64,000 nt of DNA from Candidatus Levybacteria bacterium RIFCSPHIGHO2_02_FULL_40_18 (lineage in GTDB: Bacteria; Patescibacteriota; Microgenomatia; Levybacterales; GWA1-39-11): contig MFOC01000007.1 in the NCBI GenBank assembly GCA_001782235.1, forward strand, positions 13,094-77,093, in the 5' to 3' direction. Positions within the stretch are counted from its first letter, which is position 1, and each line of letters starts with the position of its first letter. A program made the position numbers and the translations under genes. This document shows positions 3,669 through 60,421 of this stretch, piece after piece. The notes below the pieces were generated by a model. It saw only the letters and a program-made list of their open reading frames with translations, had not been told where the DNA came from and made no database searches.

Positions 3669-4565
3669 AAGATCTTTCATTACATGAGGTATTTCATTGG
3701 CGAGGTCTGAGGCATTGAAGTAGATTCCCATTTTCTTCTCTAAAGACTCGCCGGCTTTTTTGTTGATATATGAACCCGCACACGCCGATAAAAAGGAGTC
3801 GTTTTTGCAATAAAGCGCGGCAACCAAACCTGCCAGCACATCCCCCGTTCCGCCTTTGGTCATTCCGGGATTTCCGCCTGAAATTCGGTTGCACCGAATT
3901 TCACCCTGAGCGATGGTGAGCGAAGTCGAACCAGAGTCGAAGGGTCCACATACAACATCGTACTCACCCTTAAGTAAAATCACGCAATTATATTCTTTCG
4001 AAAACAGTTCAACTTGTTCTTCAATTTTTGATTTTTGAGTTGTAGTTTTGAGTTTTGAGTTTTGAGTTTTGAGTTTTAAAATCTCGAATTCTTTTCTATG
4101 TGGTGTTAATATTGGCACTGTTTTCAAACTTCGAAGAACTTCCGGATCTATGGTTTGAAGCGATCCCCCATCAACCACCCACTTCTTCTCGGGATGCGAA
4201 CGAAATAGCCTCTCGGTCATTTCTTTTGTGTCATCATCGCCTTCTTCTTGTCCCTCGGGGCGGGGTAAACCCGGTCCAATCAGAACACAATCCGCCTCTT
4301 TAATATAATTCTCGACTTTTGACCGGGGTACAACTATTCCATTTCTAAATTCTTTTTTTGCGCGTTTAACGATTTCATTATTGGTGGGAACAGATGAGTA
4401 AAAAACCATGTCGACAATTCTTGAAGCAACTGCCAGTGCCCAAAGTGATGCGGCATGAAAAAGCTGTGAACCGCCAACAATCAGAAGTTTTCCATTCTGC
4501 CCCTTATGCGAATCAGAAGCCGGCCTGTAGAGATTTTTAAGCAAACTCGAATCAAACTCCTGCAT
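3654..4565 (-). CDS. nnrD: ADP/ATP-dependent NAD(P)H-hydrate dehydratase (YjeF C-terminal / carbohydrate-kinase-like domain)
   Basis: HKGQNGKLLIVGGSQLFHAASLWA near the N-terminus and GGTGDVLAGLVAAL near the C-terminus, typical of Nnr. Carries an in-frame heptamer repeat insertion (KLKTQNSKLKTTTQKSK). Confidence 0.7.
   Translation of the reverse strand: MQEFDSSLLKNLYRPASDSHKGQNGKLLIVGGSQLFHAASLWALAVASRIVDMVFYSSVPTNNEIVKRAKKEFRNGIVVPRSKVENYIKEADCVLIGPGLPRPEGQEEGDDDTKEMTERLFRSHPEKKWVVDGGSLQTIDPEVLRSLKTVPILTPHRKEFEILKLKTQNSKLKTTTQKSKIEEQVELFSKEYNCVILLKGEYDVVCGPFDSGSTSLTIAQGEIRCNRISGGNPGMTKGGTGDVLAGLVAALYCKNDSFLSACAGSYINKKAGESLEKKMGIYFNASDLANEIPHVMKDLLLFP
4025..4078. repeat. Tandem heptamer repeat (TTTTGAG/TCAAAAC family) lying in frame inside nnr
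   Basis: tttttgagttgtagttttgagttttgagttttgagttttgagtttt, read directly from the sequence. Confidence 0.8.
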
Positions 4566-4611
4566 AATGGGATTATATCAAGTCAGTGGTTAGTTGTCAG
4601 TTGTTAGTGGT

Positions 4612-5313
4612 CTATCCTTCAATTACTGTTCCTACAAATTCTCGGCCCGCAAAATAGTGCTCAAGATTTTCAAAATTATCTCCCTTAAGAATTACAACCA
4701 TCAGTCCCAGTTCCTGCGCTTTCTTTGAAGCAATGGGGTCAAATGGTAAATTCATGCCCGGTACCCATTTATCGCCTACAATTTTCCGAAACTTGTCCCA
4801 TGTAATTTTTTTAATTGGGCGGGCATCAGGATTATGTCTAGGATCGCTGTCATAAACCATATCGATATTACTCAAATTAATAACCGTTTTTACATTGTAA
4901 TCTTCACATATCATTGCAGAACAAAAATCTGTTGACCATCCGGGTTTCCATCCTGATGCAACAACAACAGACTCGGTAACCTTTCTTATAATTTCATAAT
5001 GCTTAAGAATGTATGGATGAGCAAGATCACGAAAAATAGTTCTGACAAGATGAGCGTTGAGTCGTGTTGCATGGATCCCTAGCCAATCAAGATCTTCGGG
5101 AACTAACTCGTGACCTGTTACATTTTGCGCGGCGTCCTGATAATGTCTTGTGGTGGCACCTCCCCCTGTCACAATAAAAAACTGGCGCCCATGATTGTGC
5201 GCCAGTTGTTTTCTGATAAAGTCGTTAAACTTCTTAAGAAATGTAACATCAATTCCCCCATTTGGAACAATAAGTGACCCTCCAAGAGAAATAACAACCT
5301 TATCTTTCTTCAT
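4612..5313 (-). CDS. pyrH: Uridylate (UMP) kinase-like, amino-acid kinase family
   Basis: MKKDKVVISLGGSLI and FFIVTGGGATTRHY glycine-rich motifs of the amino-acid kinase fold. At ~233 aa it resembles archaeal-type UMP kinase; isopentenyl phosphate kinase is not excluded. Confidence 0.55.
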   Translation of the reverse strand: MKKDKVVISLGGSLIVPNGGIDVTFLKKFNDFIRKQLAHNHGRQFFIVTGGGATTRHYQDAAQNVTGHELVPEDLDWLGIHATRLNAHLVRTIFRDLAHPYILKHYEIIRKVTESVVVASGWKPGWSTDFCSAMICEDYNVKTVINLSNIDMVYDSDPRHNPDARPIKKITWDKFRKIVGDKWVPGMNLPFDPIASKKAQELGLMVVILKGDNFENLEHYFAGREFVGTVIEG

Positions 5314-5428
5314 TAAAAAGGCCCCGCCTGGAGCCTACTTTACCCCACCATCGGCGGGGAAAGTGATTACACCATAAAATATCAAAAACTGTTGACAAAT
5401 GCAAGGGCATTCGACTAATATATAGTCC

Positions 5429-6205
5429 ATGCCAAAAGCCAAATCCCCCCTGCCGGGCCGGAGGCCCTCAGGGCCGGAGGCCTTAACGCTTGGGGATCTT
5501 CTGAAAAAGGTCACTCAAATAAAGGCAAATCAATTACTTTATATTGTTCTTCTAAATGCGGCGTTTCTTCTTGGGTATCTAACAGCTCGGGTTCAATTAC
5601 TTGAGAAAAATCAAGCCACAACTACTCCAAGTTCTCAAACGGCCGGGACTGCTCCTCCTGACAAGGTAGAGGTAAAAGAAGGAAAACTTCCTGTCGTTGG
5701 GCAAACCAACGCTCGCGTAACCATGATCGAATTTTCAGACTTTGAATGTCCTTTCTGTAAAAGATATTTTGACGAAACACTCTCTCAAATTAAAAAGGAC
5801 TACGTTGACACCGGAAAAGTGAAGCTTTACTATAGGCATTTCCCTCTTGACTTTCACCTTGCGGCGCTACCTTCTGCCCTCGCATCAGAATGTGCTAATG
5901 AGCAGGGAAAATTCTGGGAATATCATGATAAAATTTTCACCGAGCAGGATAAAATTTCAGGCAAAACCGCTGATGTAATCACTACACAGCTTAAAACTTG
6001 GGCAGAGGAGCAAGGACTGAACACCCAACAATTCAACAGCTGTCTTGATACGCAAAAGTATAAATCAAATGTAGATGCCGACTTAAATGATGGAAGAACT
6101 GCGGGAGTCTCAGGAACTCCAACCTTCTTTATAAACGGCAATAGATTAGTTGGCGCCCAACCCTACGCCTCCTTCAAAACCCTAATCGACGAAGAACTCA
6201 AATAG
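5429..6205 (+). CDS. DsbA-family thiol:disulfide oxidoreductase, membrane-anchored
   Basis: N-terminal TM helix followed by a thioredoxin-fold CPFC active site (FECPFCKRYF). The 5' coding region contains a GC-rich direct repeat, GGCCGGAGGCC twice. Confidence 0.75.
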   Translation: MPKAKSPLPGRRPSGPEALTLGDLLKKVTQIKANQLLYIVLLNAAFLLGYLTARVQLLEKNQATTTPSSQTAGTAPPDKVEVKEGKLPVVGQTNARVTMIEFSDFECPFCKRYFDETLSQIKKDYVDTGKVKLYYRHFPLDFHLAALPSALASECANEQGKFWEYHDKIFTEQDKISGKTADVITTQLKTWAEEQGLNTQQFNSCLDTQKYKSNVDADLNDGRTAGVSGTPTFFINGNRLVGAQPYASFKTLIDEELK

Positions 6206-6294
6206 TAGGGCATCAAGGGTACCAAGTGTACCACGGGTACCACAAGCGATTTCCCCCGTGATACTTTTGATACATGTGATACTCGTGATACTCT

Positions 6295-7161
6295 TTATTG
6301 TTGACAATTTGGGCAAAAGTAGGTTCCGCGGCCCCCGATTCGTATAAATTTAATTGTCGAACCGCAGTTGGGGCATTTTTGACCGCGTTTTCCATAAACT
6401 AATGTGTGGTTTTGGTATTCTCCTTCCTGACCCAAAATATTAACGAACGAAAGTTCGGATGCGCCCCTACTCGCGAGGCCTTTTTTGAGTACGAACAAAA
6501 TAGAATCATAAAGTTTCTTAAGCTCTTCTTCCGAAAGGCTTTTCCCCGTCTTTCGGGGATCAATTCCTGCGCGAAATAACGCATCGTTTGCGTAAATATT
6601 CCCGATCCCTCCCATATTTGTCTGGTCCATTAAAAGCGGCTTAATCTTTGTAACCTTTTTCCCAACTACGAATTTAAATCGTGCAAAAGTTAAATCTTTG
6701 AAGGGCTCGGGCCCCATATCCCGAAAAAAGGGAAGCTTCGAAACCTTATCCGATTTAATAACCTTAATCCAGCCGAATCGCCGTTGGTCGTTGTAGTACA
6801 AGTAGGCTGTTGGCTTTTGGCTGTTGGCAGTTAGCTTGGATAGTTTGAATATAACGTGTGTAAATTTATTCGGAAGATCACCCCCAACTTTTGCAGAGAG
6901 CGAAACATTTTTGGTCTTTTCGTCTCTGTAAATAAGCTGACCCGTTAATTTTATATGTATAGCCAAACAATAACCGTTCGATAATTCTAAAATTAATCCC
7001 TTCCCTACTCTTCGAGCATCTTTAACAGTCGAACCGATTACTTTTTCTTTTTCTCCCTGAAAAACCTTTGGGTGTAATATCTCGACATCTAAAATCTTAT
7101 GCCCCAAAACATATTTAATTAAACCAAGTCGAAGCGTTTCAACTTCGGGCAATTCAGGCAT
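6295..7161 (-). CDS. mutM: Formamidopyrimidine-DNA glycosylase (Fpg/MutM)
   Basis: N-terminal MPELPEVE (catalytic Pro2/Glu3) and a C-terminal zinc finger CPNCGSTIKFIRIGGRGTYFCPNCQ. Contains an in-frame GCTGTTGGC-family repeat (…LTANSQKPTAYLYY…). Confidence 0.85.
   Translation of the reverse strand: MPELPEVETLRLGLIKYVLGHKILDVEILHPKVFQGEKEKVIGSTVKDARRVGKGLILELSNGYCLAIHIKLTGQLIYRDEKTKNVSLSAKVGGDLPNKFTHVIFKLSKLTANSQKPTAYLYYNDQRRFGWIKVIKSDKVSKLPFFRDMGPEPFKDLTFARFKFVVGKKVTKIKPLLMDQTNMGGIGNIYANDALFRAGIDPRKTGKSLSEEELKKLYDSILFVLKKGLASRGASELSFVNILGQEGEYQNHTLVYGKRGQKCPNCGSTIKFIRIGGRGTYFCPNCQQ
6806..6836. repeat. GCTGTTGGC-family tandem repeat lying in frame inside mutM
   Basis: gctgttggcttttggctgttggcagttagc; the same motif family occurs again at 51092-51126. 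Confidence 0.75.
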
Positions 7162-8293: not shown

Positions 8294-8304
8294 TGCGGCC
8301 TATT

Positions 8305-9564
8305 TTACTTTAAGCCCTTAATAAAATCCAATATCTTTTTGTCAAACACATCACTTGAAAACTTTTGGGCCTGCTTGCGGCACGTCTCCGAGGAAATTTT
8401 TAATGACTCGAACTTTTTTATCGCATCGACCAGTGAATCTAAGGTGTATTCTCTAAAAAATAATCCGGTTTTTTCATCAATAACACTCTCTTTGTATCCC
8501 CCCCCATAATATGCAATGACTGGTGTTCCAGAGAGCATTGCTTCAACTGGCGTCATGCCAAAATCCTCATCCTCGGCAAGCGCTAAAAATGCTTTTGCAC
8601 CAGAATATAACTTTGCAAGTTCCTCATCCCTTACATGCCCCAAAAACTCTACGTTTTTTTCGGCTTTTTTTGAAAGAGATTTATATCCTGTGTAATACCC
8701 GGCAGGAAGTCCAACGATTTTTAGCTTGATTCCGAGTTTTGCCGCTGCCTCAACAGCCAAATCCAAACCCTTCGAACCGACAATTCGCCCCACTACTAAA
8801 TAGTAATCTCTTTTCACCCCCGAGGGGCGGACTGAAGCGCTAGCGAGGGAGCCCGCCTGCGAGCGGAGCGAGACAGGGGTGGAGAAAGCGGGGGTGGGCA
8901 ACGTCACTGGAGGATAAATTACCGTTGCATCTCGTCTGTAAAACTTTTGAATTCTTGCTTTTGTTTCCTCCGAATTAGCAATAAAGTAGTCCACTTTTTG
9001 TGCCATTTTAAAATCATAAAGCCGCAAGAAATGGCCAACAATCATTCCGTAAAGTTTAATTGGCCAATATCTTTGCCACTCAATTGAAGTCCGATAACCA
9101 TATAACCAGCGCGGCGGGGTGTGGCAGTAACATATCTCAATTGGCCCTTTCCCCCCCGAGGGGCGGACCGAAGCGTCAGCGAGGGAGCCCGCCTGCGAGC
9201 GGAGCGAGACAGGGGTGGAGAAAGCGGGGGTGGATTTGCGACTTCCGAAACCCTTAGTCACGTACCAAGATGCCGAACTTATGACCACGTCGTATTTTGA
9301 AAAATCGAAACTTGCCCAAATTAGTGGAGTTAGGAAACGCAAAGGGCTATGAAGCTTGTCGGCAAAAAAAGGAATGTAATGAACCCAAGAAGGAATAATT
9401 TTTGCACCTTTTAATCGCGCATAAGCGGTCGATCCTTCTTTGTAAAATGCCGTGTAAATAGGCGCATCGGGAAAAAGCTTGTGTAATTCCTCCACCACTC
9501 GCTCCGCCCCTCCGTATTCCTTTATATAATCATGGACTATAGCTACTTTGATGCTAGAACTCAT
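8305..9564 (-). CDS. Glycosyltransferase family 4 (retaining GT-B) carrying two in-frame GC-rich repeat insertions
   Basis: C-terminal EDFGMTPVEAMLSGTPVIA is an EX7E-like GT4 motif. The protein contains a duplicated segment TPAFSTPVSLRSQAGSLA(D/S)ASVRPSG, encoded by the two repeat copies. Confidence 0.75.
   Translation of the reverse strand: MSSSIKVAIVHDYIKEYGGAERVVEELHKLFPDAPIYTAFYKEGSTAYARLKGAKIIPSWVHYIPFFADKLHSPLRFLTPLIWASFDFSKYDVVISSASWYVTKGFGSRKSTPAFSTPVSLRSQAGSLADASVRPSGGKGPIEICYCHTPPRWLYGYRTSIEWQRYWPIKLYGMIVGHFLRLYDFKMAQKVDYFIANSEETKARIQKFYRRDATVIYPPVTLPTPAFSTPVSLRSQAGSLASASVRPSGVKRDYYLVVGRIVGSKGLDLAVEAAAKLGIKLKIVGLPAGYYTGYKSLSKKAEKNVEFLGHVRDEELAKLYSGAKAFLALAEDEDFGMTPVEAMLSGTPVIAYYGGGYKESVIDEKTGLFFREYTLDSLVDAIKKFESLKISSETCRKQAQKFSSDVFDKKILDFIKGLK
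8816..8898. repeat. ~83-bp GC-rich repeat element, copy 1, in frame inside the GT4 gene
   Basis: cccccgaggggcggactgaagcgctagcgagggagcccgcctgcgagcggagcgagacaggggtggagaaagcgggggtgg. About 70% GC in a ~40% GC background. Confidence 0.85.
9151..9232. repeat. ~83-bp GC-rich repeat element, copy 2, in frame inside the GT4 gene
   Basis: About 95% identical to copy 1 (cccccccgaggggcggaccgaagcgtcagcgagggagcccgcctgcgagcggagcgagacaggggtggagaaagcgggggtgg). Confidence 0.85.
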
Positions 9565-9594: not shown

Positions 9595-9996
9595 TTAAAA
9601 CTTTTTTTTACCTTTTAATGTTAAGACGCTCGAGGTAAGCATTTTACAGATCTGATCCAACTCCAACAAAAGTTCCTCACATTGAGGTTTCAATTCTACA
9701 TAAGAATCTCGAAGTAAAGATAACCAGTAGCGGGATTCGTTTCCTGATTTTAGAGATATTGTGTAGTAGTTAATAAAGTCTTTTCTTGAACTAGCTGACT
9801 TGGCTTCTATCAAATTTGCTCCTATCGAAGTTGATGATCTTAATAGTTGATCACCTATTGACCAAAAGGCCCGTTTGTTGGGTAGATTATTGACGAATTT
9901 TATTATTTCGATTGAAAAATCATAAGTTCTAACTCTTAAATCAGAAGATTTTGAGTTGTAGTTCTGAGTTTTGAGTTCTGAGTTTTGAGTTCTCAT
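9595..9996 (-). CDS. Four-helix-bundle protein (23S rRNA intervening-sequence protein family, TIGR02436-like)
   Basis: FDFSIEIIKFVNNLP…LLRSSTSIGANLIEAKSASSRKDFINYYTISLKSGNESRYWLSLL matches the family signature. The N-terminus carries an in-frame heptamer repeat. Confidence 0.7.
   Translation of the reverse strand: MRTQNSELKTQNYNSKSSDLRVRTYDFSIEIIKFVNNLPNKRAFWSIGDQLLRSSTSIGANLIEAKSASSRKDFINYYTISLKSGNESRYWLSLLRDSYVELKPQCEELLLELDQICKMLTSSVLTLKGKKKF
9949..9993. repeat. Tandem TCAGAAC/TCAAAAC-family repeat at the 5' end of the four-helix-bundle gene
   Basis: ttttgagttgtagttctgagttttgagttctgagttttgagttct. Confidence 0.75.
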
Positions 9997-10922: not shown

Positions 10923-11040
10923 GCGAACATTATAGCAAGAAAAATAAGAAAAGCGCATTGATAATTGATTATTTATTATTGATTATTGAGATTATATTGG
11001 ATTATTGGAAATTGGTAGTATTGGTAATATTTGAAATTCC

Positions 11041-12565
11041 CAGGAGGGAGAACTGAGGGTGCGGGGTAGATGTGTGTTCGTCATGAAGACGAGAATGTTG
11101 CTTGCGCAACCACACAGCTACCGCCGCACCTTTCCCGATTGAATCGGGACTCAGTCTGCGAAGACCTTCAAGCTTACGCAATCAGGCCTTTTCGCCTTGT
11201 TCAGGACGAACCTGAAGCGTTAACGAGGGCGCAAAGAGCCGCCGTCACGTGTTCAGGAAATTCGTCCCAGACGAAACCCCTAAGGGTCACTTCGTCCGTT
11301 AGCGACGTGCGAACTTTAGGGTCGCGACGCCGGCGAGGGCGAGGGCGAAGGCGAAGGCTATGGCACCAGCGATGCCAAACAGGACCGAGCTGTTGCCAGC
11401 GTCGGCCAGGCCAGCGTCACCGGCGAAAGCCGTGGACGTGTTCAGCGACAGCACCGAGATTGCTATCACGCTGATAAACGCCACAATCGCCAAAACCGGC
11501 CTGCTGAACGTAATCACCGACCTTCCGATGAAGGCGCTCATGCCGATGCCATGGAGTACTCTTCTCATGGTGTTGAGTCGTAGCAGTCGCAGTCGTCGCG
11601 ATGACGATGTCGGGTCGTGAGCTACGATGTAGAGTACGCCGATGGCGGCCAGTACGAGCAGGCTTGTTGCCAGGATGACGGCGGTGGTCGTTTCAGAGTC
11701 CATCAGGGCGACGACGGTGTTGCCGCCTGTTTTGACCACTGCCTGGTCGTACACGTCGCCTACTGCGATCGGGACCGCTTCTAGCGTGTCCGGGACCGAG
11801 TCAGTCGCCGCGTACATCGTTGTCGTGGCCGGTGGGTCGTGTCCGAGCTTCAGTCCGAAGAGACCGAAAGCTCCGAACGCTACGAGGAGAGCGGCGATAA
11901 GGCCGATCACCCCAAGCTTTCTGTCTTTCACGGCGGTTCCTCCTGTTGTCCTTCTTTGGAAGGATCTTGCCGGGTTTCTCTCTTGGCTTCGTCTCTGCCC
12001 CAGGGCACGTAGGTCCCCGATGGTTTCCCTAACGCGAGGTCTCTCCTTTTGTGCTCTGGCGGTCCCGTTACCCCCTCCTTTACCTTGAAAGGATGATTAT
12101 TGGAAGGCCCAAGATGCGGACGGCGGGGATCCCGCGCGGGGGTGTCCGTATCATTCGGCCGTAACTTTTGATGGAGACGCAGATTTCGCCCAGCCCCAGA
12201 CACTGCATTCCCGTGACAGAAGCAACGTACTCGAACTGCTCGTGCGTCTCCACCTCTCAAGACCAGCTTTTATTCGATAAACTTCTCCTTTCCAGACTAT
12301 CGTGCTTACCGATAAAATATGGTAATCTCCTGTGCCTTGCCGTCCTCGGCCGAGAATCGCAGCTACGAACAAGGCTCCAAGAGAATTATTGGCCATGGGG
12401 GGGCATACTGCTTTGTCGCATTTCGCGGGCGAGGAGATTTGCAACTTCGGCAGAAGTGTCCCCATGGGGAGGCCCACTGAGTTCGCAGCCGGAGGTGGGG
12501 CCTCCAAAAGGCGGAGCGAAAACTCCTTAGCGTGATGTAGCGGGCGGAAAGACTACGATAGCACG
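11041..12565. other. GC-rich island 1 (~55-60% GC, ~1.5 kb) lying in an intergenic position
   Basis: Abrupt composition shift relative to flanking ~40% GC sequence. Contains one plausible membrane-protein ORF with an AGGAGG SD and ~630 bp with no convincing ORF. Confidence 0.7.
11299..11931 (-). CDS. Hypothetical integral membrane protein encoded within GC-rich island 1
   Basis: GTG start preceded by AGGAGG at a 7-nt spacing. Several predicted TM helices (LIAALLVAFGAFGLFGL…, ILATSLLVLAAIGVLYIVA…, AIVAFISVIAISVL…). Confidence 0.4.
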   Translation of the reverse strand: MKDRKLGVIGLIAALLVAFGAFGLFGLKLGHDPPATTTMYAATDSVPDTLEAVPIAVGDVYDQAVVKTGGNTVVALMDSETTTAVILATSLLVLAAIGVLYIVAHDPTSSSRRLRLLRLNTMRRVLHGIGMSAFIGRSVITFSRPVLAIVAFISVIAISVLSLNTSTAFAGDAGLADAGNSSVLFGIAGAIAFAFALALAGVATLKFARR

Positions 12566-12633
12566 CGAGGAGTGTAAAGGCTTTTATTTTCTTCTTTCGA
12601 ATTGATATTCGACTGTGAACCCTATGTAGTAAC

Positions 12634-12676
12634 CGACAATTGACATTTGACAACTGACAATTGACAATTGACAAAT
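12634..12676. promoter_or_regulatory. Tandem TTGACAA-type direct repeats (iteron/operator-like)
   Basis: gacaattgacatttgacaactgacaattgacaattgacaa, immediately outside GC island 1. Confidence 0.3.
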
Positions 12677-12954
12677 TGTTGCACAGGATTCACAGCCGAA
12701 CTATATGCACCATGCTTTTAGGTGCATGCTACCAATTCCAAAAGAAGTTTACCCCGTTAGAAAATTTATTTTCTAATCGGGCTTCGCAGACTGAATTTTC
12801 AAAGAGCAAAGCATTTGTCTAAATAAATAACGCGCATGCAAAAAGCGCTTATTATTAGGACAATGCTAATATTTGAAGTATATACCCGAATAAAACGCGT
12901 TTCAAGTGGAATTTCGATGTATCTTCCTAATCCCTAGTATCTAGTCACTATTTG

Positions 12955-15174: not shown

Positions 15175-15324
15175 AGGTTCATTATATATTAAGTATCAGA
15201 AATTGGAAATTAGTTATAAGAAGTTAGAAATTGGTAATAGAAATTTGAAATTGGAGAATGGTAGCTATCTAATTTCTGTTTTCCAGTTTCCATTACTACT
15301 CTCCATTTTCCAATAACCATTTTC

Positions 15325-17166: not shown

Positions 17167-17303
17167 CTGAATAGAAAATTATACCACGCTTTGATTCAAA
17201 ATCAAAGCTACAAGTCTCCAGTTTCCATTTTCCACTCGCCAATTAATTTATCAATTGTTGAATTAGATGATTAATTGGAAATTGGTAATTGGAAATTGGA
17301 AAT

Positions 17304-17540
17304 TTAAGGGACGGGATCCCAGCCTCCTTTTGCGAAGGGGTGGCAGCGGATAATGCGTTTAAAACCTAAAATCGAACCCTTTGCCACTCCATATTTTTCT
17401 ATTGCCTGGTAAGTATAGTCGGAGCAGGTAGGGGAATATCGGCAGGCCGAATCAACCAGAAACAATGTTTTTAAAATGCCTTTCCGAAAACCAATCGTCT
17501 TCTGATAAAACCGAATAGCATTAAGAGCAAATTGTTTCAT
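17304..17540 (-). CDS. yidD: Membrane protein insertion efficiency factor YidD
   Basis: CRYSPTCSDYTYQAIEKYG…RCHPFAKGGWDPVP is the hallmark YidD sequence; 78 aa. Confidence 0.85.
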   Translation of the reverse strand: MKQFALNAIRFYQKTIGFRKGILKTLFLVDSACRYSPTCSDYTYQAIEKYGVAKGSILGFKRIIRCHPFAKGGWDPVP

Positions 17541-38910: not shown

Positions 38911-38922
38911 ACTAGCTTTTAG

Positions 38923-39285: not shown

Positions 39286-39348
39286 ATAATCTATGGAAAT
39301 TGGCTCATGGAAATTGGATATTGGTAATAGAAATTAAAAACCATTTTC

Positions 39349-41508: not shown

Positions 41509-41711
41509 TCAGATCTTAGATATTAGATCTTTGATCTTAGACAAAACATCTAACATCTATTATCCGTGATCTAACATCTAAGCTAGGATTCTAGCATAAC
41601 ACAATTCTTGCTTCAATCTAACTTCATGTAACTACTTGCTTGCTACCCCCTGGACTTCGGCATTTACCCTGTTAAATTGCGGAGCAATATTTAACAAGGT
41701 ATAATACATTT

Positions 41712-43814: not shown

Positions 43815-43929
43815 AGTTCATAAAGTTTATAAGGGATTACTTTACAAACCTTAAAAACTTGAAACTTTATAAACTATTTAGTCCTTGATGCTCTTGATAC
43901 TCTTGGTACCCTTAAAGTAAACTATCTCC

Positions 43930-46596: not shown

Positions 46597-47334
46597 ATGG
46601 ACAAAATCACTGAAAAAGAGTTTCAAAAACATCTCGAAAGTGAGCACCAAAGGTTTTCAATCTCGGGGTATCTTAAGGAAATTGTTTATGGCGGAAGCGA
46701 TGGAATTGTTACCACGTTTGCCGTTGTTGCAGGCTTTACCGGAGCACAAAGCGGTCTGCTTTCTCAATATCCTGTCTTTATAGTTCTTATTTTTGGGTTT
46801 GCTAATCTTTTTGCCGATGCTGTATCTATGGGTCTTGGGAACGTTTTGTCGATTATGGCAGATAAAGACGTTTACAAAGCGGAACGTGACAAGGAGCTTT
46901 ATGAAATAAGAAATAATCCCGAGTTTGAGAGGATGGAAACAATCTATATTCTCAAAAAGCGCGGATTTTCAGAAGATGCGGCTAAAAAAATAGCAGAGTT
47001 GTATTCAGAAAATGAAAATTATTGGGCAGACTTTATGATGAGATTTGAGCTTGAGATGCCAACACCTGAACTTGAAAATTCACTAGTCACGGGTCTTACA
47101 ACATTTTCCTCTTTTGTCCTCTTTGGTTTTATTCCCTTAATCCCTTATGTTTTGGCAACAGAAGGTGATAAATTTTTAGTTTCCGTAATATTTACATTTA
47201 TTGCCCTCGCTCTCTTAGGCGCGCTCCGCTGGAAGGTAACAACAGAAAAATTATGGCGAACAGTTTCTGAAACAGTCTTGCTTGGTGGAATTGCGGCGAG
47301 TATAGCCTACTTCGTCGGCACCCTCTTCAAGTAA
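46597..47334 (+). CDS. VIT1/CCC1 family iron/manganese transporter
   Basis: GGSDGIVTTFAVVAGFTGA and multiple TM helices. Confidence 0.72.
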   Translation: MDKITEKEFQKHLESEHQRFSISGYLKEIVYGGSDGIVTTFAVVAGFTGAQSGLLSQYPVFIVLIFGFANLFADAVSMGLGNVLSIMADKDVYKAERDKELYEIRNNPEFERMETIYILKKRGFSEDAAKKIAELYSENENYWADFMMRFELEMPTPELENSLVTGLTTFSSFVLFGFIPLIPYVLATEGDKFLVSVIFTFIALALLGALRWKVTTEKLWRTVSETVLLGGIAASIAYFVGTLFK

Positions 47335-47337
47335 AGT

Positions 47338-47450
47338 TAAAAGTCAAAATGCAAAATTCAAAATTACAATTCAAAAGTAAAAAGTGTTCGAAGACTTTTA
47401 AATTTTAACTTTAACTTTTGACCTTTGACTTTTGAGTTTTGAATTTGGTT
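47338..47450. terminator. Long imperfect inverted repeat built from TCAAAAC-family heptamers, between convergent genes (putative bidirectional terminator)
   Basis: Left arm aagtcaaaatgcaaaattcaaaattacaattcaaaag; right arm cttttgacctttgacttttgagttttgaattt. Confidence 0.5.
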
Positions 47451-50943: not shown

Positions 50944-50954
50944 GTCCATAAGGC

Positions 50955-52226
50955 TTAAGACTTAAGTTTTGCGAAAGACAATCCTAAAACTAAGGCCAGC
51001 ATTATTTGGCCCTGCTCAAGGGTTAAGAAAAAGTGATCGAACATCCCGACAACTATTATCGATATTAATACGAACAGAGTACTCCTGTAAAAGGCTGTTG
51101 GCTGTTGGCTGTTGGCTGTTGGCTTATTAATAAGTGATCGAATTGCAAAGATAAACATTGCCGGAAAAATCCACCAACCAAATATTCCAAGTGAAAGAAA
51201 CGCTAAAACAAAAATATTATGAGGCGGCTGAAAAAGAATTGGAGATATATTCTTTATTAAATCAACCTGATGGACAAAAAAATTGTTAAGGCCTATTCCA
51301 AAATAAGGATTCCCCAAAAAAATTTGAAAGGACTGAATTAACAGGTCTTGTCTAAAATCTATACCCCTCAATAAAAATTGAGCACTTAATACATCAGGAA
51401 AAAAAATACTTACCAACCCTAACAGCCCCAACAGCCCTAAAACTATGAGCATAACATTGCGTTTTCCTTTCGTGTAAATTGCATAGAAGAAAAAACAAAT
51501 TGCTAAAAGAATTGTTATTCGAGAAAAAGTCAAAACTATACCCACAGTGGATAGCAAGATGCTTGATATTAAAACCCCTTTCACTGCCGAATTTTTTTCG
51601 TAAGGTAATCTAAAAACAGTGAACGCAGTGGTTGCAAGAAAGAAGAAAGCCAAAACATTTGGATGGGGGAAGGCAGCATACGGTCTTAAGACTAGATAGT
51701 CTAAATTAACTGTTGAAATTCCAATTGTTGAAATGTTAAAAGTTCGCTCTCCCAAAAAATACCAAAGACCGCCAATAGATGACTGTTTTATAAACTGCCA
51801 GATCGCAAGGACAGATGAAATAATTGCCGAAGTCGCAAGCATTATGACAAATGGTCGAATATAAATTCTGTCAAAAGTTTTTGCGATCAACAGCCCAAAA
51901 AGCCCGAATTCCACTAATTTTAGCATTCCAAACAGATGCACAGCGGGAGATTTAGATATAAATATGTTAAGAAGAATGCTGAGAAAAAAAAGCGCAAGTA
52001 GAGCGGCTGAAATTTTGTTAATCGCAAATTTAATCCTAAACAAAAGTTTAAAATTCAACAAAATAAATAAAATAATTAAAATATCAAGAAGATAGAGCGT
52101 CGGGGAAAGATAATCTATACGAATCCCATTGATGAATGAGAAAGCAGGCCAGAAATGAAGTCCCACTTGAGAAGAACTGAAGAAAACAATCAGAAAAAAT
52201 AAAATCTTGCGAACTTTATCTAGCAC
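50955..52226 (-). CDS. Polytopic membrane protein, O-antigen ligase/polymerase (Wzy_C)-like
   Basis: ~10 TM helices; contains an in-frame GGCTGTT-family repeat (KPTANSQQPTAF). Confidence 0.4.
   Translation of the reverse strand: MLDKVRKILFFLIVFFSSSQVGLHFWPAFSFINGIRIDYLSPTLYLLDILIILFILLNFKLLFRIKFAINKISAALLALFFLSILLNIFISKSPAVHLFGMLKLVEFGLFGLLIAKTFDRIYIRPFVIMLATSAIISSVLAIWQFIKQSSIGGLWYFLGERTFNISTIGISTVNLDYLVLRPYAAFPHPNVLAFFFLATTAFTVFRLPYEKNSAVKGVLISSILLSTVGIVLTFSRITILLAICFFFYAIYTKGKRNVMLIVLGLLGLLGLVSIFFPDVLSAQFLLRGIDFRQDLLIQSFQIFLGNPYFGIGLNNFFVHQVDLIKNISPILFQPPHNIFVLAFLSLGIFGWWIFPAMFIFAIRSLINKPTANSQQPTAFYRSTLFVLISIIVVGMFDHFFLTLEQGQIMLALVLGLSFAKLKS
51092..51126. repeat. GGCTGTT tandem repeat, in frame inside the membrane-protein gene
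   Basis: aggctgttggctgttggctgttggctgttggctta. Confidence 0.8.
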
Positions 52227-54181: not shown

Positions 54182-54266
54182 AAGAAGTAATAATACCAAA
54201 AACAAACCTTCGAAACAATAGAACTGTTTTGCTTTTTAAAACCTTTTAAAGTAAAATCAGGGACAA

Positions 54267-54869
54267 ATGAGTCTGGCAGAAAGACTTAACGAACGAGTTC
54301 CCAATAATGAAGACGTTATCCTGCTTAGAAGGACAAGAATTAACTATGACGCTGATAAAACATCCGCATTGGCAACCGCTAAAAGACGCCTTATCGATTC
54401 GGGATCTTTTGATATTGTTGAAGAACTCTTAGAACTTGTTGAGGGTTCATGGGTTAACTTTAGTGAGGATAATCCACCTTCCGGCTTGCCCGTCTTAGGT
54501 AATCGTTCCCCATTTTTGGGTTTGGGACTTTATCGGGGACGGGATAGTACAATTACATATAACAAGTGGGTTAAGATTGAGTTTGGTTGGATTAATAAAA
54601 TAAGAGATGAAGAGGAAGATATTTCTGTTTCGGGGGAAGGATCAAAAAGCTTTTTAGCTATAACGGCACCGGAAACTTCTGACCAAATTATTATAGGAGC
54701 CAGTTCATATGATCTGGCTTTTCTTTCTGACCCAATCCGCTTCAAATATACTCTGTCAAGAGAACAATATTTAAACAGAGAACTTTTTGAAAACGTGATT
54801 GTGGAAGCTTCAGTTTTAGCAGGTTTAACAAAACCAAACTTAAAGTTGAAGGGAGCCAGAAATGAGTGA
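54267..54869 (+). CDS. Hypothetical protein A1 (paralog of 55587-56150)
   Basis: MSLAERLNERVPNNEDVILLRRTRINYD… aligns with A2 at the N-terminus (MSL.ERL..R.P.NE..ILLRRTR) and the C-terminus (LFE..IVEA..LAGLT). The two share a near-identical 5' leader. Confidence 0.45.
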   Translation: MSLAERLNERVPNNEDVILLRRTRINYDADKTSALATAKRRLIDSGSFDIVEELLELVEGSWVNFSEDNPPSGLPVLGNRSPFLGLGLYRGRDSTITYNKWVKIEFGWINKIRDEEEDISVSGEGSKSFLAITAPETSDQIIIGASSYDLAFLSDPIRFKYTLSREQYLNRELFENVIVEASVLAGLTKPNLKLKGARNE

Positions 54870-55485: not shown

Positions 55486-55586
55486 TTTTTATAGAATAGC
55501 CTCAAAAGGCTAGGCCTTGGCGAGCTTACGAGACTAGAATTGTTCGTTTTGCTTTTTAAAACCTTTTGGAGTAAAATCTGACCAAA

Positions 55587-56150
55587 ATGAGCTTAAAAGA
55601 GAGGCTTGAGGCAAGGGCTCCAAAAAACGAATCTACTATATTACTCCGGAGAACCAGGCTAGAATTTGAGCAGGATAGAAATAGTCATTTGGCTCCAGTT
55701 AGAAAAAGGCTGTTAACATCGGGGGTGTTCGAAGTATTAGAAGAACTCTTGGAAACGGTTGAAGATTCTCGATTTAGCGTCAGTCCAAACTATCAGGAGT
55801 TCCCTCCCCAGCATATTCCTGCCACCGCTGCGACAGCCCTTATATGTTCTTGGGCAGTCTTTAAGACTTTTGAACATATCGACGGCGAACCTGATTTGAA
55901 ACAAACCTCAAGACGGTCTGTAAAAATTACTGCCTTCTTAAATTCGGACAATATCGAAGTTGCATCAAGAGAAGACACCGTTTTATTTTTTGAAAATAGG
56001 CGAGACCCCTTGCTACCGTCAGGCAAAGAGGTTTTCAGAAAAACCTTATCCCCTAAAGAATGGCAGAATGGGGATTTGTTTGAAACTACAATTGTTGAGG
56101 CTTTAACCTTAGCTGGGCTAACAAGATCTCAGCTAAATTTGGGAAATTAA
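55587..56150 (+). CDS. Hypothetical protein A2 (paralog of 54267-54869)
   Basis: See A1; the upstream leader at 55540-55586 is near-identical to 54220-54266. Confidence 0.45.
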   Translation: MSLKERLEARAPKNESTILLRRTRLEFEQDRNSHLAPVRKRLLTSGVFEVLEELLETVEDSRFSVSPNYQEFPPQHIPATAATALICSWAVFKTFEHIDGEPDLKQTSRRSVKITAFLNSDNIEVASREDTVLFFENRRDPLLPSGKEVFRKTLSPKEWQNGDLFETTIVEALTLAGLTRSQLNLGN

Positions 56151-56953: not shown

Positions 56954-57010
56954 GGGTCTTAAGTCAAAAATGTCTTTGTGAGGGTTTAGCGGGAGGAGCG
57001 GTGGAAACTT

Positions 57011-57044
57011 ACTTAATACTTGATACTTAATACTTAATACTTTA
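57011..57044. repeat. ACTTAATACTTGATACTTAATACTTAATACT tandem repeat just upstream of gap
   Basis: acttaatacttgatacttaatacttaatacttta. Confidence 0.7.
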
Positions 57045-57054
57045 TTCTAATTAC

Positions 57055-58137
57055 ATGGTACGGGTTGCAATCAATGGTTATGGAAGAATTGGTAGAGTGG
57101 CGCATCGAGTGATTCTTCTTTCGCACACGGATGAAATCGATGTTGTTGCCATAAATGCTGGATCCTCAACTGATATAACCGGTTGGATGTATCTTTTAAA
57201 ATACGATACTGTTTATGGCGCCCTGCAAAATACTAATCTTTCGGTCAAAAAAGCAGAGGAAGTAAAACTACCATTCGAATCTCAAGCGTTGCCAATAGGC
57301 GCGCTTATTATTAATTCGAAAGAAATTCCTGTCTTCTCTGAAAAGGAGCCTGAAAAACTTCCGTGGCGGGACTTAAATGTTGATGTTGTAATTGAATCGA
57401 CTGGCCACTTTACAACCAACGAGGGTTTGCAAAAACATATTACTGCAGGATCAAAGGCAGCAATTTTATCTGCGCCATATAAAGATGAAGCTTCAGGTAG
57501 CACTTATGTTTTAGGGGTAAACCTTCCACAAGATGGATCTATTCGAACCGAGAATATTGTGAGCAATGCCTCTTGTACTACAAATTGTATTACTCCGATT
57601 GCACATGTAATAGAGCAAGCTTTTGGAATAGAAAAAGCCATGATGACAACAATTCATGGATATACATCGGATCAAAGAATTCAGGACGGAGGACACAAAG
57701 ATTATAGACGCGCAAGAGCTGCGGCAGAAAACATTATCCCAACATCAACAGGCGCGACAAAAGCTGCTGCAAAAGCTATCCCAACGCTCGAAGGAAAATT
57801 TAACGGGCTGGCGATTCGCGTTCCGGTGCCAACAGGATCTTTATCGGACTTTACTTTTTTGGTAAAGCGAAATACAACCGTTGAAGAAGTTAATCAAGCA
57901 CTTGAACAAGCATCCAAAGAGCCGCAATTCGAAGGAATACTGCAGGTGACCCACGATCCAATAGTCTCATCAGATATAATCGGAAATTACCATTCGGCAA
58001 TCGCAGATCTTTCCCTCACGCAAGTTGTCGGCGGGAACATGGTAAAAGTGATTGCCTGGTATGATAACGAATTCGGCTACTCAAATAGATTGGTAGAAGA
58101 AGCAATTATTCTAGGCAAGCAAGTCCTTCCAACATAA
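57055..58137 (+). CDS. gap: Type I glyceraldehyde-3-phosphate dehydrogenase
   Basis: MVRVAINGYGRIGR and the SNASCTTNC active site. Confidence 0.9.
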   Translation: MVRVAINGYGRIGRVAHRVILLSHTDEIDVVAINAGSSTDITGWMYLLKYDTVYGALQNTNLSVKKAEEVKLPFESQALPIGALIINSKEIPVFSEKEPEKLPWRDLNVDVVIESTGHFTTNEGLQKHITAGSKAAILSAPYKDEASGSTYVLGVNLPQDGSIRTENIVSNASCTTNCITPIAHVIEQAFGIEKAMMTTIHGYTSDQRIQDGGHKDYRRARAAAENIIPTSTGATKAAAKAIPTLEGKFNGLAIRVPVPTGSLSDFTFLVKRNTTVEEVNQALEQASKEPQFEGILQVTHDPIVSSDIIGNYHSAIADLSLTQVVGGNMVKVIAWYDNEFGYSNRLVEEAIILGKQVLPT

Positions 58138-58231
58138 TTCAAAATTCAAAGGTCAAAGGTCAAAAGTTAAAGTAAAAATCCAAAAGATTTAGAGACTTTT
58201 AACTTCTGCGGTCTTTTTGCTATACTACATT

Positions 58232-58816
58232 ATGGCTTCGCCGTTTGATGTTCCCGGTATTCGTATTGTTACTATTTCCGGCCGCATTGCCTCGGGTTCT
58301 ACAACGCTTGCAAATCATTTGGCAGAAAAATTAGGATGGCGTCATCTTGAAGGTGGAGAAATATTTTGGGAAACGGTTCGAAAGAAAATGGGACTTGCAG
58401 AGAAAGATACAAATCTTCGGCCTGACCAGGAGGACGAATTATTTGATGCAAAGCTTAAACAGATTCTAAAAGAAGAAAAGCACATTGTTCTTGAAACAAA
58501 ACTTGCGGCTTTTAATGCACAGGAGATTGAAGGAATATTTAAGATTCTTGTTCTTTGCGAGAAGAATGGGGAAGACCAGCCGCAAATAAGAATTGACCGT
58601 TTAATAAATCGTGAGGGTATAAGCGTTGATGAGGCAAAGGAAGAAGTTTTACACCGAGAGCAAAGTGACCTTGAAAAATGGAGAAAACTCTATGCAAACT
58701 CTGACCCCAATTGGGTTTATTGGGACAAAAAATATTATGATCTAGTTATTAATACATATGACAAAAATAGTGAACAAACCTTCCAGACTGCCCTCACAGC
58801 TTTAGGTATTGGTTGA
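58232..58816 (+). CDS. cmk: Cytidylate kinase (archaeal-type CMP kinase family)
   Basis: ITISGRIASGSTTLANHLAEKLGWRHLEGGEIF P-loop; LINREGISVDEAKEEVLHREQSDLEKWRKLY; YDLVINT. Confidence 0.65.
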   Translation: MASPFDVPGIRIVTISGRIASGSTTLANHLAEKLGWRHLEGGEIFWETVRKKMGLAEKDTNLRPDQEDELFDAKLKQILKEEKHIVLETKLAAFNAQEIEGIFKILVLCEKNGEDQPQIRIDRLINREGISVDEAKEEVLHREQSDLEKWRKLYANSDPNWVYWDKKYYDLVINTYDKNSEQTFQTALTALGIG

Positions 58817-58928
58817 TGGGTTTAGTTTGTGCTGCCAGTATGGTCATAGTTTGAGTTTTAGATCAAAACTTACCGAAAACCACACCCAGTTACCATACGA
58901 GCTGCCACAACCATGCCTTCTAAACTAG

Positions 58929-59294
58929 TCAAAACCCCGATATATTCTCAAGATGCTCAAGACTTTCTACCTTGTTACCGGGCGAAAGAATAATACCTAT
59001 TGCGTCTATTCGCATAAAATCTGGGAGATTAGGATGGAGTTGTTTGTAAAATTGCGCGAGACGTACAAGATGTTTTAATTTCCAAGGGGTAATTGATTCA
59101 AAAGGCGAGCCGAACGAATCAGATCTTCGAGTCTTGACTTCAACAAATACCAAAGTCGAATTTTTGATTGCAATAATATCTATTTCTTGATATTTCTTGC
59201 GAAAGTTTCGCTCAATAATCTTATAGCCTTTGCTCACCAAATACTCGCACGCCAAATCCTCCCCTATTTTTGCAATCGGATTGACTATTTTCAT
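58929..59294 (-). CDS. yraN: YraN family (UPF0102) endonuclease
   Basis: IGEDLACEYLVSKGYKIIERNFR…IDIIA…VFVEVKTR. Confidence 0.8.
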   Translation of the reverse strand: MKIVNPIAKIGEDLACEYLVSKGYKIIERNFRKKYQEIDIIAIKNSTLVFVEVKTRRSDSFGSPFESITPWKLKHLVRLAQFYKQLHPNLPDFMRIDAIGIILSPGNKVESLEHLENISGF

Positions 59295-60421
59295 TTTTCA
59301 AGAGGGGTGAGGCCGGGGAGTTTGTGGCCGGACAGGAATTCTAGCATTGCACCGCCGCCGGTTGAGACAAAATCGAAATTATCAAGAAGATTTATTCGGC
59401 GAAGATACGCCAATGTGTCTCCCCCTCCAACCACTTTATACGCTTTTGTCGAAACAATAAATTCTGCAAGTTCTCGTGTGCCTTGCTCGCTATCTATTTT
59501 GTCAGAAAAATTGATCATTCCGACTGGCCCGTTCCAAACAATAGTCGCGGCCAACCCCAAAATCTGTTTAAAATTCTCTATTGACTTTGGAGTAATATCA
59601 AAACCGTCTTCTCTCAAATCCGCCACTAACACCGCGGACTTTGGCCCTTTTATTTCTTCGTGCTGAACCTTTATTAAAACGCGGGTTTGTTCGGCAATTT
59701 CTCCGCCAACCAGAACATAGTCGGCAACATGGTGCATCTTTGAAACCAGGGGCAGTTTTGTTTCAATTTTTGCCCCTCCAATAAGTACCGCTAGGGGACG
59801 TCTTGCCGCCGGCCCAGAGGGCCTCTGGCCCGGAAGGGGATTATTTAAAATCTTTGAAAGTTCACTAACTTCTTTTGCAAGATGCAATCCGGAATAAGAA
59901 GAAAGAAATTTTGTCACCCCCACAATACTTGCGTGTTCGCGATGACAAACCGCAAAAGCATCATTAACATAAATATCTCCCAGAAGCGCCAATTCACGAG
60001 CGAACGCGAGTCCTGAGGCGGTCGTTGGATTCTTTTCTTCTCCTTTGAAGAATCGAACGTTTTCGATGAGATTAATTCGATCAGTAATTTTCCACCCTGG
60101 AAAATCTCCAATTTTTGTCTCTTCGACTTTCCCATCGAATTTTTTCGCGTACCAATGCGCAATCGATTTTAAACTAAATTCGTTATTTATACTTAATACT
60201 TTATACTTACTACTTAATACTGGCTCCGGCCGCCCAAGATGTCCTACAATATTCACATCCGCCCCTTTTTTTAATAGAAATTCGATTGTCGGAATCGCAG
60301 AAGAAAGTCTTGTATCATCTATTATTCGACCATTTTCGATATCGACATCAGTATCAATCCTAAGCAAAACAGTTTTTCCAGAAAGATCTGAGAGAGAATC
60401 TATTGCGCGAAGTTTACTCAT
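59291..60421 (-). CDS. pgk: Phosphoglycerate kinase
   Basis: Typical Pgk N- and C-terminal domains (…VLLRIDTDV…, …GGGDTLAYL…). Contains an in-frame tandem repeat (SSKYKVLSINNEF). Confidence 0.88.
   Translation of the reverse strand: MSKLRAIDSLSDLSGKTVLLRIDTDVDIENGRIIDDTRLSSAIPTIEFLLKKGADVNIVGHLGRPEPVLSSKYKVLSINNEFSLKSIAHWYAKKFDGKVEETKIGDFPGWKITDRINLIENVRFFKGEEKNPTTASGLAFARELALLGDIYVNDAFAVCHREHASIVGVTKFLSSYSGLHLAKEVSELSKILNNPLPGQRPSGPAARRPLAVLIGGAKIETKLPLVSKMHHVADYVLVGGEIAEQTRVLIKVQHEEIKGPKSAVLVADLREDGFDITPKSIENFKQILGLAATIVWNGPVGMINFSDKIDSEQGTRELAEFIVSTKAYKVVGGGDTLAYLRRINLLDNFDFVSTGGGAMLEFLSGHKLPGLTPLEK
60190..60222. repeat. TACTTAATACT-family tandem repeat, in frame inside pgk
   Basis: tacttaatactttatacttactacttaatactg. 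Confidence 0.75.

Follow-up and report, generated by a model that had tools for sequence, protein, structure and literature searches.

How do single-copy essential genes come to carry, in frame, the same short tandem repeats that lie between genes? The question is raised by a 64,000-nucleotide stretch (the window, to which all coordinates below refer) of Candidatus Levybacteria bacterium RIFCSPHIGHO2_02_FULL_40_18 (GenBank assembly GCA_001782235.1, contig MFOC01000007.1, positions 13,094 to 77,093), from the Microgenomates within the Candidate Phyla Radiation (CPR). The valyl-tRNA synthetase (ValRS; 39349-41508) has the same sequence (100% identity) as in Candidatus Levybacteria bacterium RIFCSPHIGHO2_01_FULL_40_58. 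Tandem arrays of a 7-nt unit occur in this window both in spacers and inside genes such as valS, pgk, mutM, and nnr. We consider it probable, at roughly 60%, that they are heptanucleotide arrays of the type described as short tandemly repeated repetitive (STRR) sequences or long simple sequence repeats (LSSRs), kept uniform by transient misalignment and filtered by selection on reading frame and stop codons.

The initial annotation of the window had reported repeats both between genes and, in frame, within conserved housekeeping genes. Each site that it cited proved to be an array, with a 7-nt unit repeated head to tail according to Tandem Repeats Finder (TRF) and direct reading, and with families common to both kinds of DNA. 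At a threshold of at least four copies at 80% or more, the window holds 16 arrays of period 7, compared with 0.0 in 20 dinucleotide-preserving shuffles. Strong enrichment is confined to this period, as periods of 5, 8, and 10 to 15 nt give about zero to one array. A separate scan of the window yielded 17 arrays, nine within open reading frames (ORFs) and eight intergenic; noncoding DNA makes up 11.6% of the window yet holds 8/17, a 6.7-fold higher density (binomial P = 3e-4). The arrays thus show the noncoding preference of the STRR/LSSR class, though a coding share of 9/17 is atypical for it. At least eight unit types are spread over the 17 loci, and the CTCAAAA, AACAGCC, AAGTATT, and CSAGTAT types each occur at two loci or more.

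All nine coding arrays preserve the reading frame in the ORF scan, stand in the stop-free orientation, and translate into the low-complexity peptides that had been quoted for them. The AGTATTA family, which contains stops on both strands, is found in genes only with stop-removing variant units. By Pfam, the host ORFs belong to Carb_kinase/NAD(P)HX dehydratase, Fpg/MutM, 23S_rRNA_IVP, class-I tRNA synthetase, RNase H, Wzy_C, and PGK; the class-I synthetase is annotated as valine--tRNA ligase and matches 1GAX (E = 4e-167). Evidence on how the arrays change over time comes from this gene, valS, which carries three of them:

40085-40117, minus strand: valS site 1, a perfect TCAAAAA array (TRF, 100%) encoding KSKIKNQKSK
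39679-39717, minus strand: valS site 2, CGAGTAT/CCAGTAT units with a perfect 14-nt period by TRF, encoding RVSSIQYRVSSI
39451-39484, minus strand: valS site 3, TACTTAA on the coding strand (TRF), encoding a conserved helix of the anticodon-binding domain, SYLILTTLYLILL

We codon-aligned valS of the window with that of six other Levybacteria (loci L081, L082, and L089 to L092; 75 to 86% ValRS identity) and one Roizmanbacteria (L001; 57 to 60%). At site 2, a net insertion of about 5 amino acids relative to 1GAX, seven species including the Roizmanbacteria carry an array in the same place and register; L081 has four units and the other six species have five. The units themselves are CGAGTAT, CGAGTAC/TGAGTAT, CAAGTAT/TAAGTAT, AAAGTCA, CAAGTGA/CAATTGA, and CAACTGA. 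Unit identity reaches 0.85 within arrays, against 0.60 between species for units of the same index and 0.59 for units of a different index. This gap between the within-array and the between-species values is the signature of concerted evolution.

Site 1 is a 14-amino-acid loop insertion that corresponds to a gap in 1GAX. Its TCAAAAA array is identical in the window and L081 despite flanks at 80% identity; the unit is TTCAAAA in L082, TTCAAAG in L092, AGAATCA in L091, and TGAATCA in L089, and the site is empty in L090 and in the Roizmanbacteria. The window exceeds L090 here by exactly 42 nt, which equals six units or 14 codons. The arrays at this site are 80 to 100% periodic internally, neighboring arrays in their network differ by one base per unit, and the encoded peptides vary by species (KSKIKNQ, KFKIQNS, KFKVQSS, and ESRSMNH).

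The helix at site 3 is kept in orthologs and aligns to the Thermus thermophilus ValRS helix without insertion. Three species have TACTTAA units in this place, four others have TTCATAA/TTCTTAA or TTCACNG units, and the Roizmanbacteria has no array. Unit identity is 0.70 within versus 0.67 between species, a partial effect under protein constraint. An A-to-T change at unit position 2 is present in all five units, where it falls on codon positions 1, 2, and 3 and replaces Tyr by Phe, is silent at Ile, and replaces Thr by Ser. As the same change occupies all three codon positions, selection at the protein level does not explain it; the finding points to a process at the DNA level that protein selection merely permits.

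On these alignments, the arrays are old and orthologous: their register and boundaries are common to related Levybacteria and, for one valS array, also to Roizmanbacteria. Across species, conservation concerns the 7-nt periodicity of the DNA, which holds at all codon positions, and not the encoded peptides, for which no function is evident. This bears on a suggestion of the initial annotation, that the insertions have a selected surface-loop function. In these episymbiotic bacteria, the peptides could be selected features of the protein surface, as interaction motifs or flexible loops, since most arrays lie in exposed variable loops and the same loops are occupied in many orthologs. However, the peptides of one site change freely, to the point of complete difference between species, with the DNA periodicity retained at all codon positions; furthermore, nnr and the four-helix-bundle gene read one and the same DNA array in different frames, and many presumably functional orthologs have no array. 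We therefore regard selection for the peptides as very improbable.

The other idea advanced in the initial annotation, a hypermutable repeat, was compared with the variation found within the species. Four independent assemblies of the same species (L083 to L086; two from different ENA samples, one from NCBI, GCA_001782715.1, and one from JGI) show one to three single-nucleotide polymorphisms and zero indels against the window over up to 22 kb that include eight arrays. Additionally, an identical PGK protein is encoded on 27 contigs. Heptanucleotide phase-variable repeats are known in Haemophilus (PMC8262952), and a one-unit slip would switch the frame, as 7 nt is not divisible by 3; the arrays could consequently be read as contingency loci that vary in copy number. 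The Haemophilus influenzae HMW1A loci are alike in their tandem 7-nt units, in which a change of copy number alters expression or frame (PMC8262952), but they differ in that the present arrays show no copy-number variation between assemblies and lie in housekeeping rather than surface or virulence genes. The hosts (valS, pgk, mutM, nnr, and RNase H) are essential single-copy enzymes for which an off state would be lethal, and the Wzy-like gene is the only host with a relation to the cell surface. The four assemblies without indels lead us to reject hypermutability as largely refuted, in line with the identical PGK and the sharing of sites across species. Assembly artefact is ruled out by the agreement of the same assemblies and by the conservation in other species of arrays that, at 28 to 51 nt, are shorter than one sequencing read. 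Phase variation or artefact is the least probable of the explanations that we considered.

Six further coding arrays complete the set:

4026-4077, minus strand: nnr array in the NAD(P)HX dehydratase ORF (3654-4565), coding-strand unit CTCAAAA, one unit being an irregular CTACAA, encoding KLKTQNSKLKTTTQKSK
6805-6836, minus strand: mutM/fpg array (ORF 6295-7161), CCAACAG / AACAGCC units (TRF), encoding KLTANSQKPTA
9949-9993, minus strand: array of the four-helix-bundle (23S_rRNA_IVP) gene (ORF 9595-9996; TRF), forming the N-terminal 20 residues
43563-43602, plus strand: RNase H array (ORF 43377-43814), xCAGTAT units (TRF), encoding VSSIQYPVSSI
51093-51124, minus strand: Wzy array in a Wzy_C-family membrane protein (ORF 50955-52226), perfect AGCCAAC x4.6 (TRF, 100%), encoding KPTANSQQPTA
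60189-60221, minus strand: pgk array (ORF 59291-60421), AGTATTA with stop-avoiding AGTAGTA and AGTATAA units (TRF), encoding VLSSKYKVLS

The word insertion, which had been applied to every coding array, holds for five of them, which add 5 to 16 residues; those of valS site 3, RNase H, and Wzy have native length. Alignment to orthologs and structures places most arrays in variable loops, and that of valS site 3 in a conserved helix. The mutM array is a net insertion of about 9 amino acids in a beta-hairpin relative to Lactococcus lactis Fpg (1TDZ/1PJI). The four-helix-bundle array is an N-terminal extension, as the Pfam domain begins at residue 23, and the ATG of this ORF and the stop codon of the 5'-3' exonuclease gene upstream overlap. 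The RNase H segment involves no net insertion (-1 to +3 amino acids versus the PDB homologs 3HST and 3U3G); four other Levybacteria have GTCAGTT, GTCAATT/GTCAACG, or GTCAAAG arrays at this site, and L092 has none. The Wzy array takes the place of exactly 33 nt of nonperiodic loop sequence in L082, and the loop of L091 is 2 codons longer.

With 7.6 copies at 89% by TRF, the nnr array gives a net gain of about 5 to 7 amino acids relative to PDB homologs and of about 12 to 16 relative to the few orthologs without it. Together with its irregular middle unit, it is present in most Levybacteria and Roizmanbacteria orthologs and missing from a few. A separate stretch of the same gene (3885-3945, residues ~208 to 227) is a variable hot spot, PFDSGSTSLTIAQGEIRC, at which orthologs are empty or carry FDSAQGE-type or VRPPTLKLRR-type sequence; the comparison suggests other small in-frame elements.

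In pgk, the array is a 10-amino-acid net insertion directly after the HLGRP motif relative to orthologs and PDB structures. This loop and two further ones are hot spots in the ortholog alignment. About half of the Levybacteria orthologs are empty after HLGRP, and the others have heptamer-encoded peptides of at least seven unit types. The AlphaFold2 model of PGK has a mean predicted local distance difference test (pLDDT) score of 85.8 and two segments below 50, both coil. One of them, residues 68 to 77, is encoded by the array and models as a disordered loop; the other, residues 197 to 205, is a second insertion unrelated to the heptamer array.

Several side observations belong beside these genes. 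A second class of in-frame insert, unrelated to the arrays, is a GC-rich palindrome of about 33 nt (CCGGGCCAGAGGCCCTCTGGGCCGG), which in pgk (59801-59836) encodes LPGQRPSGPAA in a stretch modeled as coil with pLDDT below 50. It is missing from the 98%-identical protein P0122 and present at the same site in the orthologs P0124 (79%) and P0135 (70%), and the palindrome also occurs at 5431-5495 (N terminus of a DsbA-like ORF) and at 50859-50944 (C terminus of a PBP gene). In the RNase H ortholog of L091 (7437-7895), the heptamer array is broken in frame by a 17-nt palindrome, CCCCGATATAATCGGGG, that adds PDIIG. On plasmid alpha of Nostoc PCC 7120 (L107:3776-4185), a four-helix-bundle gene belonging to the family seen in the window is followed, 17 nt downstream, by a CCTCTGC x6 array; that a heptamer array accompanies the gene in both cases may be coincidence or association.

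The arrays are a feature of Microgenomates loci more widely. Their density per 10 kb is 2.7 in the window, 3.9 in L081, 0.8 to 5.6 in the Levybacteria loci other than the window, and 1.4 in the Roizmanbacteria locus, as compared to 0.088 in 80 other bacterial loci (1.48 Mb), so that the window lies about 30-fold above this control. The control loci were among the matches listed in a ValRS search of genome contigs, which also supplied L001; they come mostly from distant phyla and include Saccharibacteria and Peregrinibacteria. Period 7 is again the commonest long period in them. Array length in the Microgenomates loci (the window, L001, L081, L082, and L088 to L092) has a mode at 27 to 35 nt (four to five units; 48/103 arrays) and falls sharply above 36 nt. 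The mode is alike in coding and noncoding DNA, whatever the unit sequence, and the IMG/VR loci L093 to L106 are similar. Exact (CTCAAAA)4 was found in 14 IMG/VR contigs, most of which abound in heptamer arrays that are similar in length and belong to many unit types. A PGK search of metagenome contigs gave two loci. In 50 kb of Nostoc PCC 7120 plasmid alpha, the scan found three arrays, all intergenic or at gene edges, a result that is indicative only.

Some arrays at different loci are nearly identical. At a distance of 5.9 kb, the nnr array and that of the four-helix-bundle gene have 41/43 nt in common, including the irregular 6-nt CTACAA unit, and are read in different frames. Agreement between the arrays of mutM and Wzy is 31/34 nt, with phase, frame, and 11-codon length all equal, and 47388-47450 matches 58131-58193 at 84% over 63 nt, with variant units in the same order and each copy directly 3' of a stop codon. 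Such arrays are not independent and must sometimes have been copied; as the nnr array is ancient at its site, the four-helix-bundle copy must be a recent transfer or the product of ongoing ectopic conversion. Moreover, neighboring sites in one genome tend toward one unit: valS site 2 and RNase H both have CSAGTAT in the window and CAACTGA in L081.

Near-identical copies at unrelated loci are also expected of miniature inverted-repeat transposable elements and small dispersed repeats (SDRs), which raises the possibility that the arrays are small nonautonomous mobile cassettes of about 33 nt, inserted by a dedicated or hijacked activity such as has been suggested for cyanobacterial SDRs, with the coding copies as tolerated insertions. 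The shared irregular units, the sharp 27- to 35-nt length mode in coding and noncoding DNA, the perfect Wzy array where relatives hold unrelated sequence, and the unit families common to Levybacteria, Roizmanbacteria, and heptamer-rich IMG/VR contigs would all fit such cassettes. Nevertheless, no terminal inverted repeats, target-site duplications, or conserved flanks surround the 17 arrays of the window, and no transposase-like partner was identified; three arrays are length neutral, and most coding arrays are orthologous and ancient, with stepwise drift of units, rather than recent insertions. Cyanobacterial SDRs, reportedly dispersed elements of 20 to 30 nt that can sit inside genes without destroying them (Elhai et al. 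2008, Genome Res 18:1484; cited in PMC3116915), are reportedly not heptamers in tandem and are presumed to be mobile, with ends that are defined; the arrays here differ by showing neither such ends nor target duplications. An insert with defined ends was rejected on the missing flanking signature at the 17 arrays and on the Wzy array, which replaces rather than adds sequence. Mobile cassettes in the wider sense appear unlikely. A diversity-generating retroelement (DGR) was rejected separately, as no reverse transcriptase was present among the ORFs scanned, the RVT_3 match reflects the RNase H fold, and the unit-wide changes are not adenine specific; the four-helix-bundle protein is of the same family as the DGR protein Avd.

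Another explanation is that the arrays serve as cis-elements in DNA or RNA, and it draws on their placement between genes:

4582-4612: GTCAGTG/GTTAGTT array filling the spacer between a UMP-kinase-like gene and nnr (TRF, sequence read)
10957-11031: arrays of ATTGATT and other units, directly next to the 5'-3' exonuclease start codon (TRF)
12631-12674: intergenic GACAATT array (TRF)
15198-15254: AGAAATT/GGAAATT array 24 nt upstream of a VirD4-like gene, with a related copy at 39294-39340 (TRF, repeat family D3)
17273-17304: AATTGGA array (reverse complement TCCAATT) upstream of ftsH (TRF, 92%)
38913-38946: AGCTAAT-type array in the spacer between the L25 gene and the next ORF, orthologous to L081:5924-5954 (repeat family D8)
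39294-39335: array downstream of valS, filling the spacer (TRF, repeat family D3)
41511-41581: AGATCTT and AACATCT arrays starting 2 nt upstream of the valS start codon (TRF)
47333-47446: spacer of two convergent genes filled by a pair of opposed arrays (xTCAAAA and the complement), each abutting a stop codon (TRF)
57010-57042: TACTTAA array 12 nt upstream of a start codon (TRF, 92%)
58131-58193: TCAAAxx array overlapping the stop codon of the upstream gene, a copy of 47388-47450 that is oriented to its gene in the same way

The array at 57010-57042 is of the same family as those of pgk and valS site 3 and forms inverted repeat I5 (91% over 34 nt). The opposed pair at 47333-47446 forms inverted repeat I1 (63 nt at 84%), whose right arm is a dispersed copy of 58131-58193. 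Folded as RNA, this pair does no better than shuffled sequence (z = -0.49), and its reading as a hairpin or terminator was rejected on this result. As cis-elements, the arrays could act, for example, as a binding platform for a regulator of single strands (S1, Csp, or a CsrA-like protein), an idea already put forward for the TAACTGA repeats, or as a spacer that leaves leaders and 3' ends without structure, and the coding copies would be collateral. In favor of this, intergenic arrays abut start codons (10957, 41511, and 57010) and stop codons (47333, 47446, and 58136), as reported for the TAACTGA repeats (PMC4679880); the 63-nt array lies downstream of two genes in one orientation, and periodicity is kept over deep time. 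However, with respect to transcription, arrays are found in either orientation, the folding result gives no structure to the 47.3-kb pair, and all seven unit positions are homogenized, not just a core motif. That the unit sequence can change entirely at one site also argues against a sequence-specific reader. A role of this kind appears unlikely in our view.

We thus favor heptanucleotide arrays kept uniform by misalignment, for which the following mechanism can be proposed. In Microgenomates, the short arrays would form a genome-wide class and occupy every tolerant position, that is, intergenic spacers and structurally permissive stretches of proteins. Transient misalignment of neighboring 7-nt units during replication or repair would generate them and maintain their periodicity. 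If the misaligned strand does not realign, whole units would be gained or lost; if a few bases are copied before realignment, sequence would pass from unit to unit with length unchanged, and the array would be homogenized. In genes, selection would purge frameshifts, stop codons, and products that damage the fold, so that length-neutral conversions and rare indels divisible by three survive. The arrays would look frozen within a population and show homogenized drift among species because selection in genes leaves mainly length-neutral conversions. Over species time, the unit would drift and a new variant sweep all copies, which amounts to concerted evolution, and a whole array of about 33 to 45 nt would occasionally be copied to another locus or overwrite another array. 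The peptides would arise as by-products, and proteins would tolerate them in the form of disordered loops or, for one orientation, of a hydrophobic helix. Enrichment, orthology, concerted evolution, near-identity between loci, invariance within the population, and placement in loops or a helix are observed directly; misalignment or template switching as the cause, a reason for the 7-nt unit, and neutrality of the arrays are what we infer.

Several results weigh against this reading. Simple slippage should produce indels in multiples of 7 nt, but the length differences at valS site 1 include 33, 36, and 18 nt, and most are not multiples of 7 or 21. Unconstrained slippage does not predict the sharp length mode at 27 to 35 nt either. 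Lineages that are not sisters have the same units (CAAxTGA in L081 and L091; GAATCA in L089 and L091), a recurrence that calls for favored "attractor" units or for overwriting out of one common pool. The sequence that gave way to the young Wzy array, exactly 33 nt, is unrelated to it and offered no homology to template a conversion. Part of the pattern at valS site 2 (CG to CA or TG in each unit) could be parallel CpG decay, and a function of the arrays in DNA or RNA is possible. The length mode, the recurrence of units, and the 33-nt replacement in Wzy keep both mobile cassettes and a DNA or RNA function in consideration.

A bolder proposal, which we consider unlikely, is one in which a dedicated and active enzymatic process of Microgenomates, not passive slippage, writes or re-templates heptamer cassettes of about 33 nt without changing length. 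If true, native coding sequence within essential genes could be overwritten by this process, the Wzy loop and the valS helix being examples, and the process would keep periodicity across phylum-level divergence while drawing on a shared pool of favored units. The arrays would then be a DNA-level selfish element inside genes or a functional signal.

Heptanucleotide arrays as such are known from cyanobacteria, Beggiatoaceae, Xanthomonas, and other bacteria, and their origin and role have been debated since about 1990. STRR sequences, reportedly described as heptanucleotides of heterocystous cyanobacteria by Mazel et al. in 1990, resemble the present arrays as short tandem arrays of 7 nt with several unit families per genome, many loci, and enrichment in noncoding DNA. 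The difference lies in the host, a CPR/Microgenomates lineage with genomes of roughly 1 Mb, and in the location of half of the arrays in frame in housekeeping genes. In the strict sense, the term STRR applies to heterocystous cyanobacteria and the STRR1 to STRR3 units; here, the host is a Levybacteria and the units differ save for CAACAGC, which we take to resemble the STRR3 unit CAACAGT. In the broader sense of the STRR/LSSR class, the window has tandem 7-nt units at above-chance frequency in several dispersed families. Three tandem heptanucleotides are on record for Calothrix PCC 7601 (PMC4692102).

The TAACTGA repeats (MacGregor 2015, PMC4679880) of marine Beggiatoaceae, cyanobacteria, and Bacteroidetes are likewise heptamers, in two to six copies, often abut start or stop codons, and are kept out of ORFs in the stop-containing orientation; the related unit CAACTGA occurs in L081. 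They differ in having one dominant unit, with ORF copies at protein termini or in hypothetical proteins (PMC4679880), whereas here many unit types occupy internal sites of core enzymes, and orthology and unit drift can be demonstrated. According to the account of the LSSR survey of Mrazek et al. (2007; units of 5 to 11 nt) given in PMC4679880 and PMC4692102, heptanucleotides are the most abundant class, polymerase slippage was proposed, and repeats in coding regions mainly have unit lengths that are multiples of three; by its date, the survey so described predates CPR genomes. The GGGNATC heptamers of Xanthomonas and Nostoc (Rehm et al. 2015, PMC4692102) are also genome-wide, with a preference for about four units; they lie within 50 bp of gene ends and vary between related species (PMC4692102). 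In contrast to the present arrays, they are G-rich, are proposed to form G-quadruplexes, and show under-representation in coding DNA (PMC4692102). As the arrays here are A/T-rich and form no G-quadruplex, that account of the four-unit preference is inapplicable to them despite the equal length preference. In the literature searched, heptamer arrays are not described from CPR, nor are orthologous arrays that lie in frame in core enzymes or their length-preserving concerted evolution.

CPR genomes, considered highly streamlined, still carry repeat DNA in single-copy essential enzymes, including a conserved helix. Orthologous arrays under frame constraint constitute a natural experiment that parts unit conversion from change of copy number, and the length of about 33 nt and the few favored units in distant lineages are testable clues to mechanism. 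In practice, the arrays create hypervariable low-complexity segments in phylogenetic marker proteins such as ValRS and PGK, which should consequently be masked in alignments and annotation.

Other elements of the window are recorded here as observations in their own right. A GT4 glycosyltransferase ORF (8305-9564) contains an 86-nt element twice (8812-8897 and 9148-9233), in frame and 95% identical, with about 70% GC in a 41% GC genome, encoding PAFSTPVSLRSQAGSLA.ASVRPSG. Tandem arrays with a 9-nt period (CAAGGGTAC, GTGATACTT, and CTTGATACT) lie in gene-downstream spacers at 6214-6292 and 43807-43913, and those of the two spacers are partly complementary (I14, 79% over 28 nt). The region at about 11000-12900 has a GC content of 48% versus 41% and ORFs overlapping on both strands; none of the three ORFs tested matched Pfam (0/3), and the region gave no Rfam match. 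Around a large serine recombinase (30397-32173; 578 amino acids with Resolvase and Recombinase domains) that adjoins a tRNA-Met gene, the region of about 29 to 38 kb includes several small GIY-YIG ORFs; BLAST gave no match to it in the syntenic L082 locus, and the region may be an integrated element. A LOOT RNA (RF03000, 87 bits, full length) at 34548-34662 lies directly upstream of ORF 34648-35172 and overlaps its start; LOOT is a motif of the OD1, OP11, and TM7 lineages. Finally, a motif of about 48 nt (family D6; TTTTGCTTTTTAAAACCTTTT..AGTAAAAT...ATGA) at 38069-38116, 54223-54270, and 55543-55590 ends at the start codons of three unrelated genes and is probably a shared promoter or leader.

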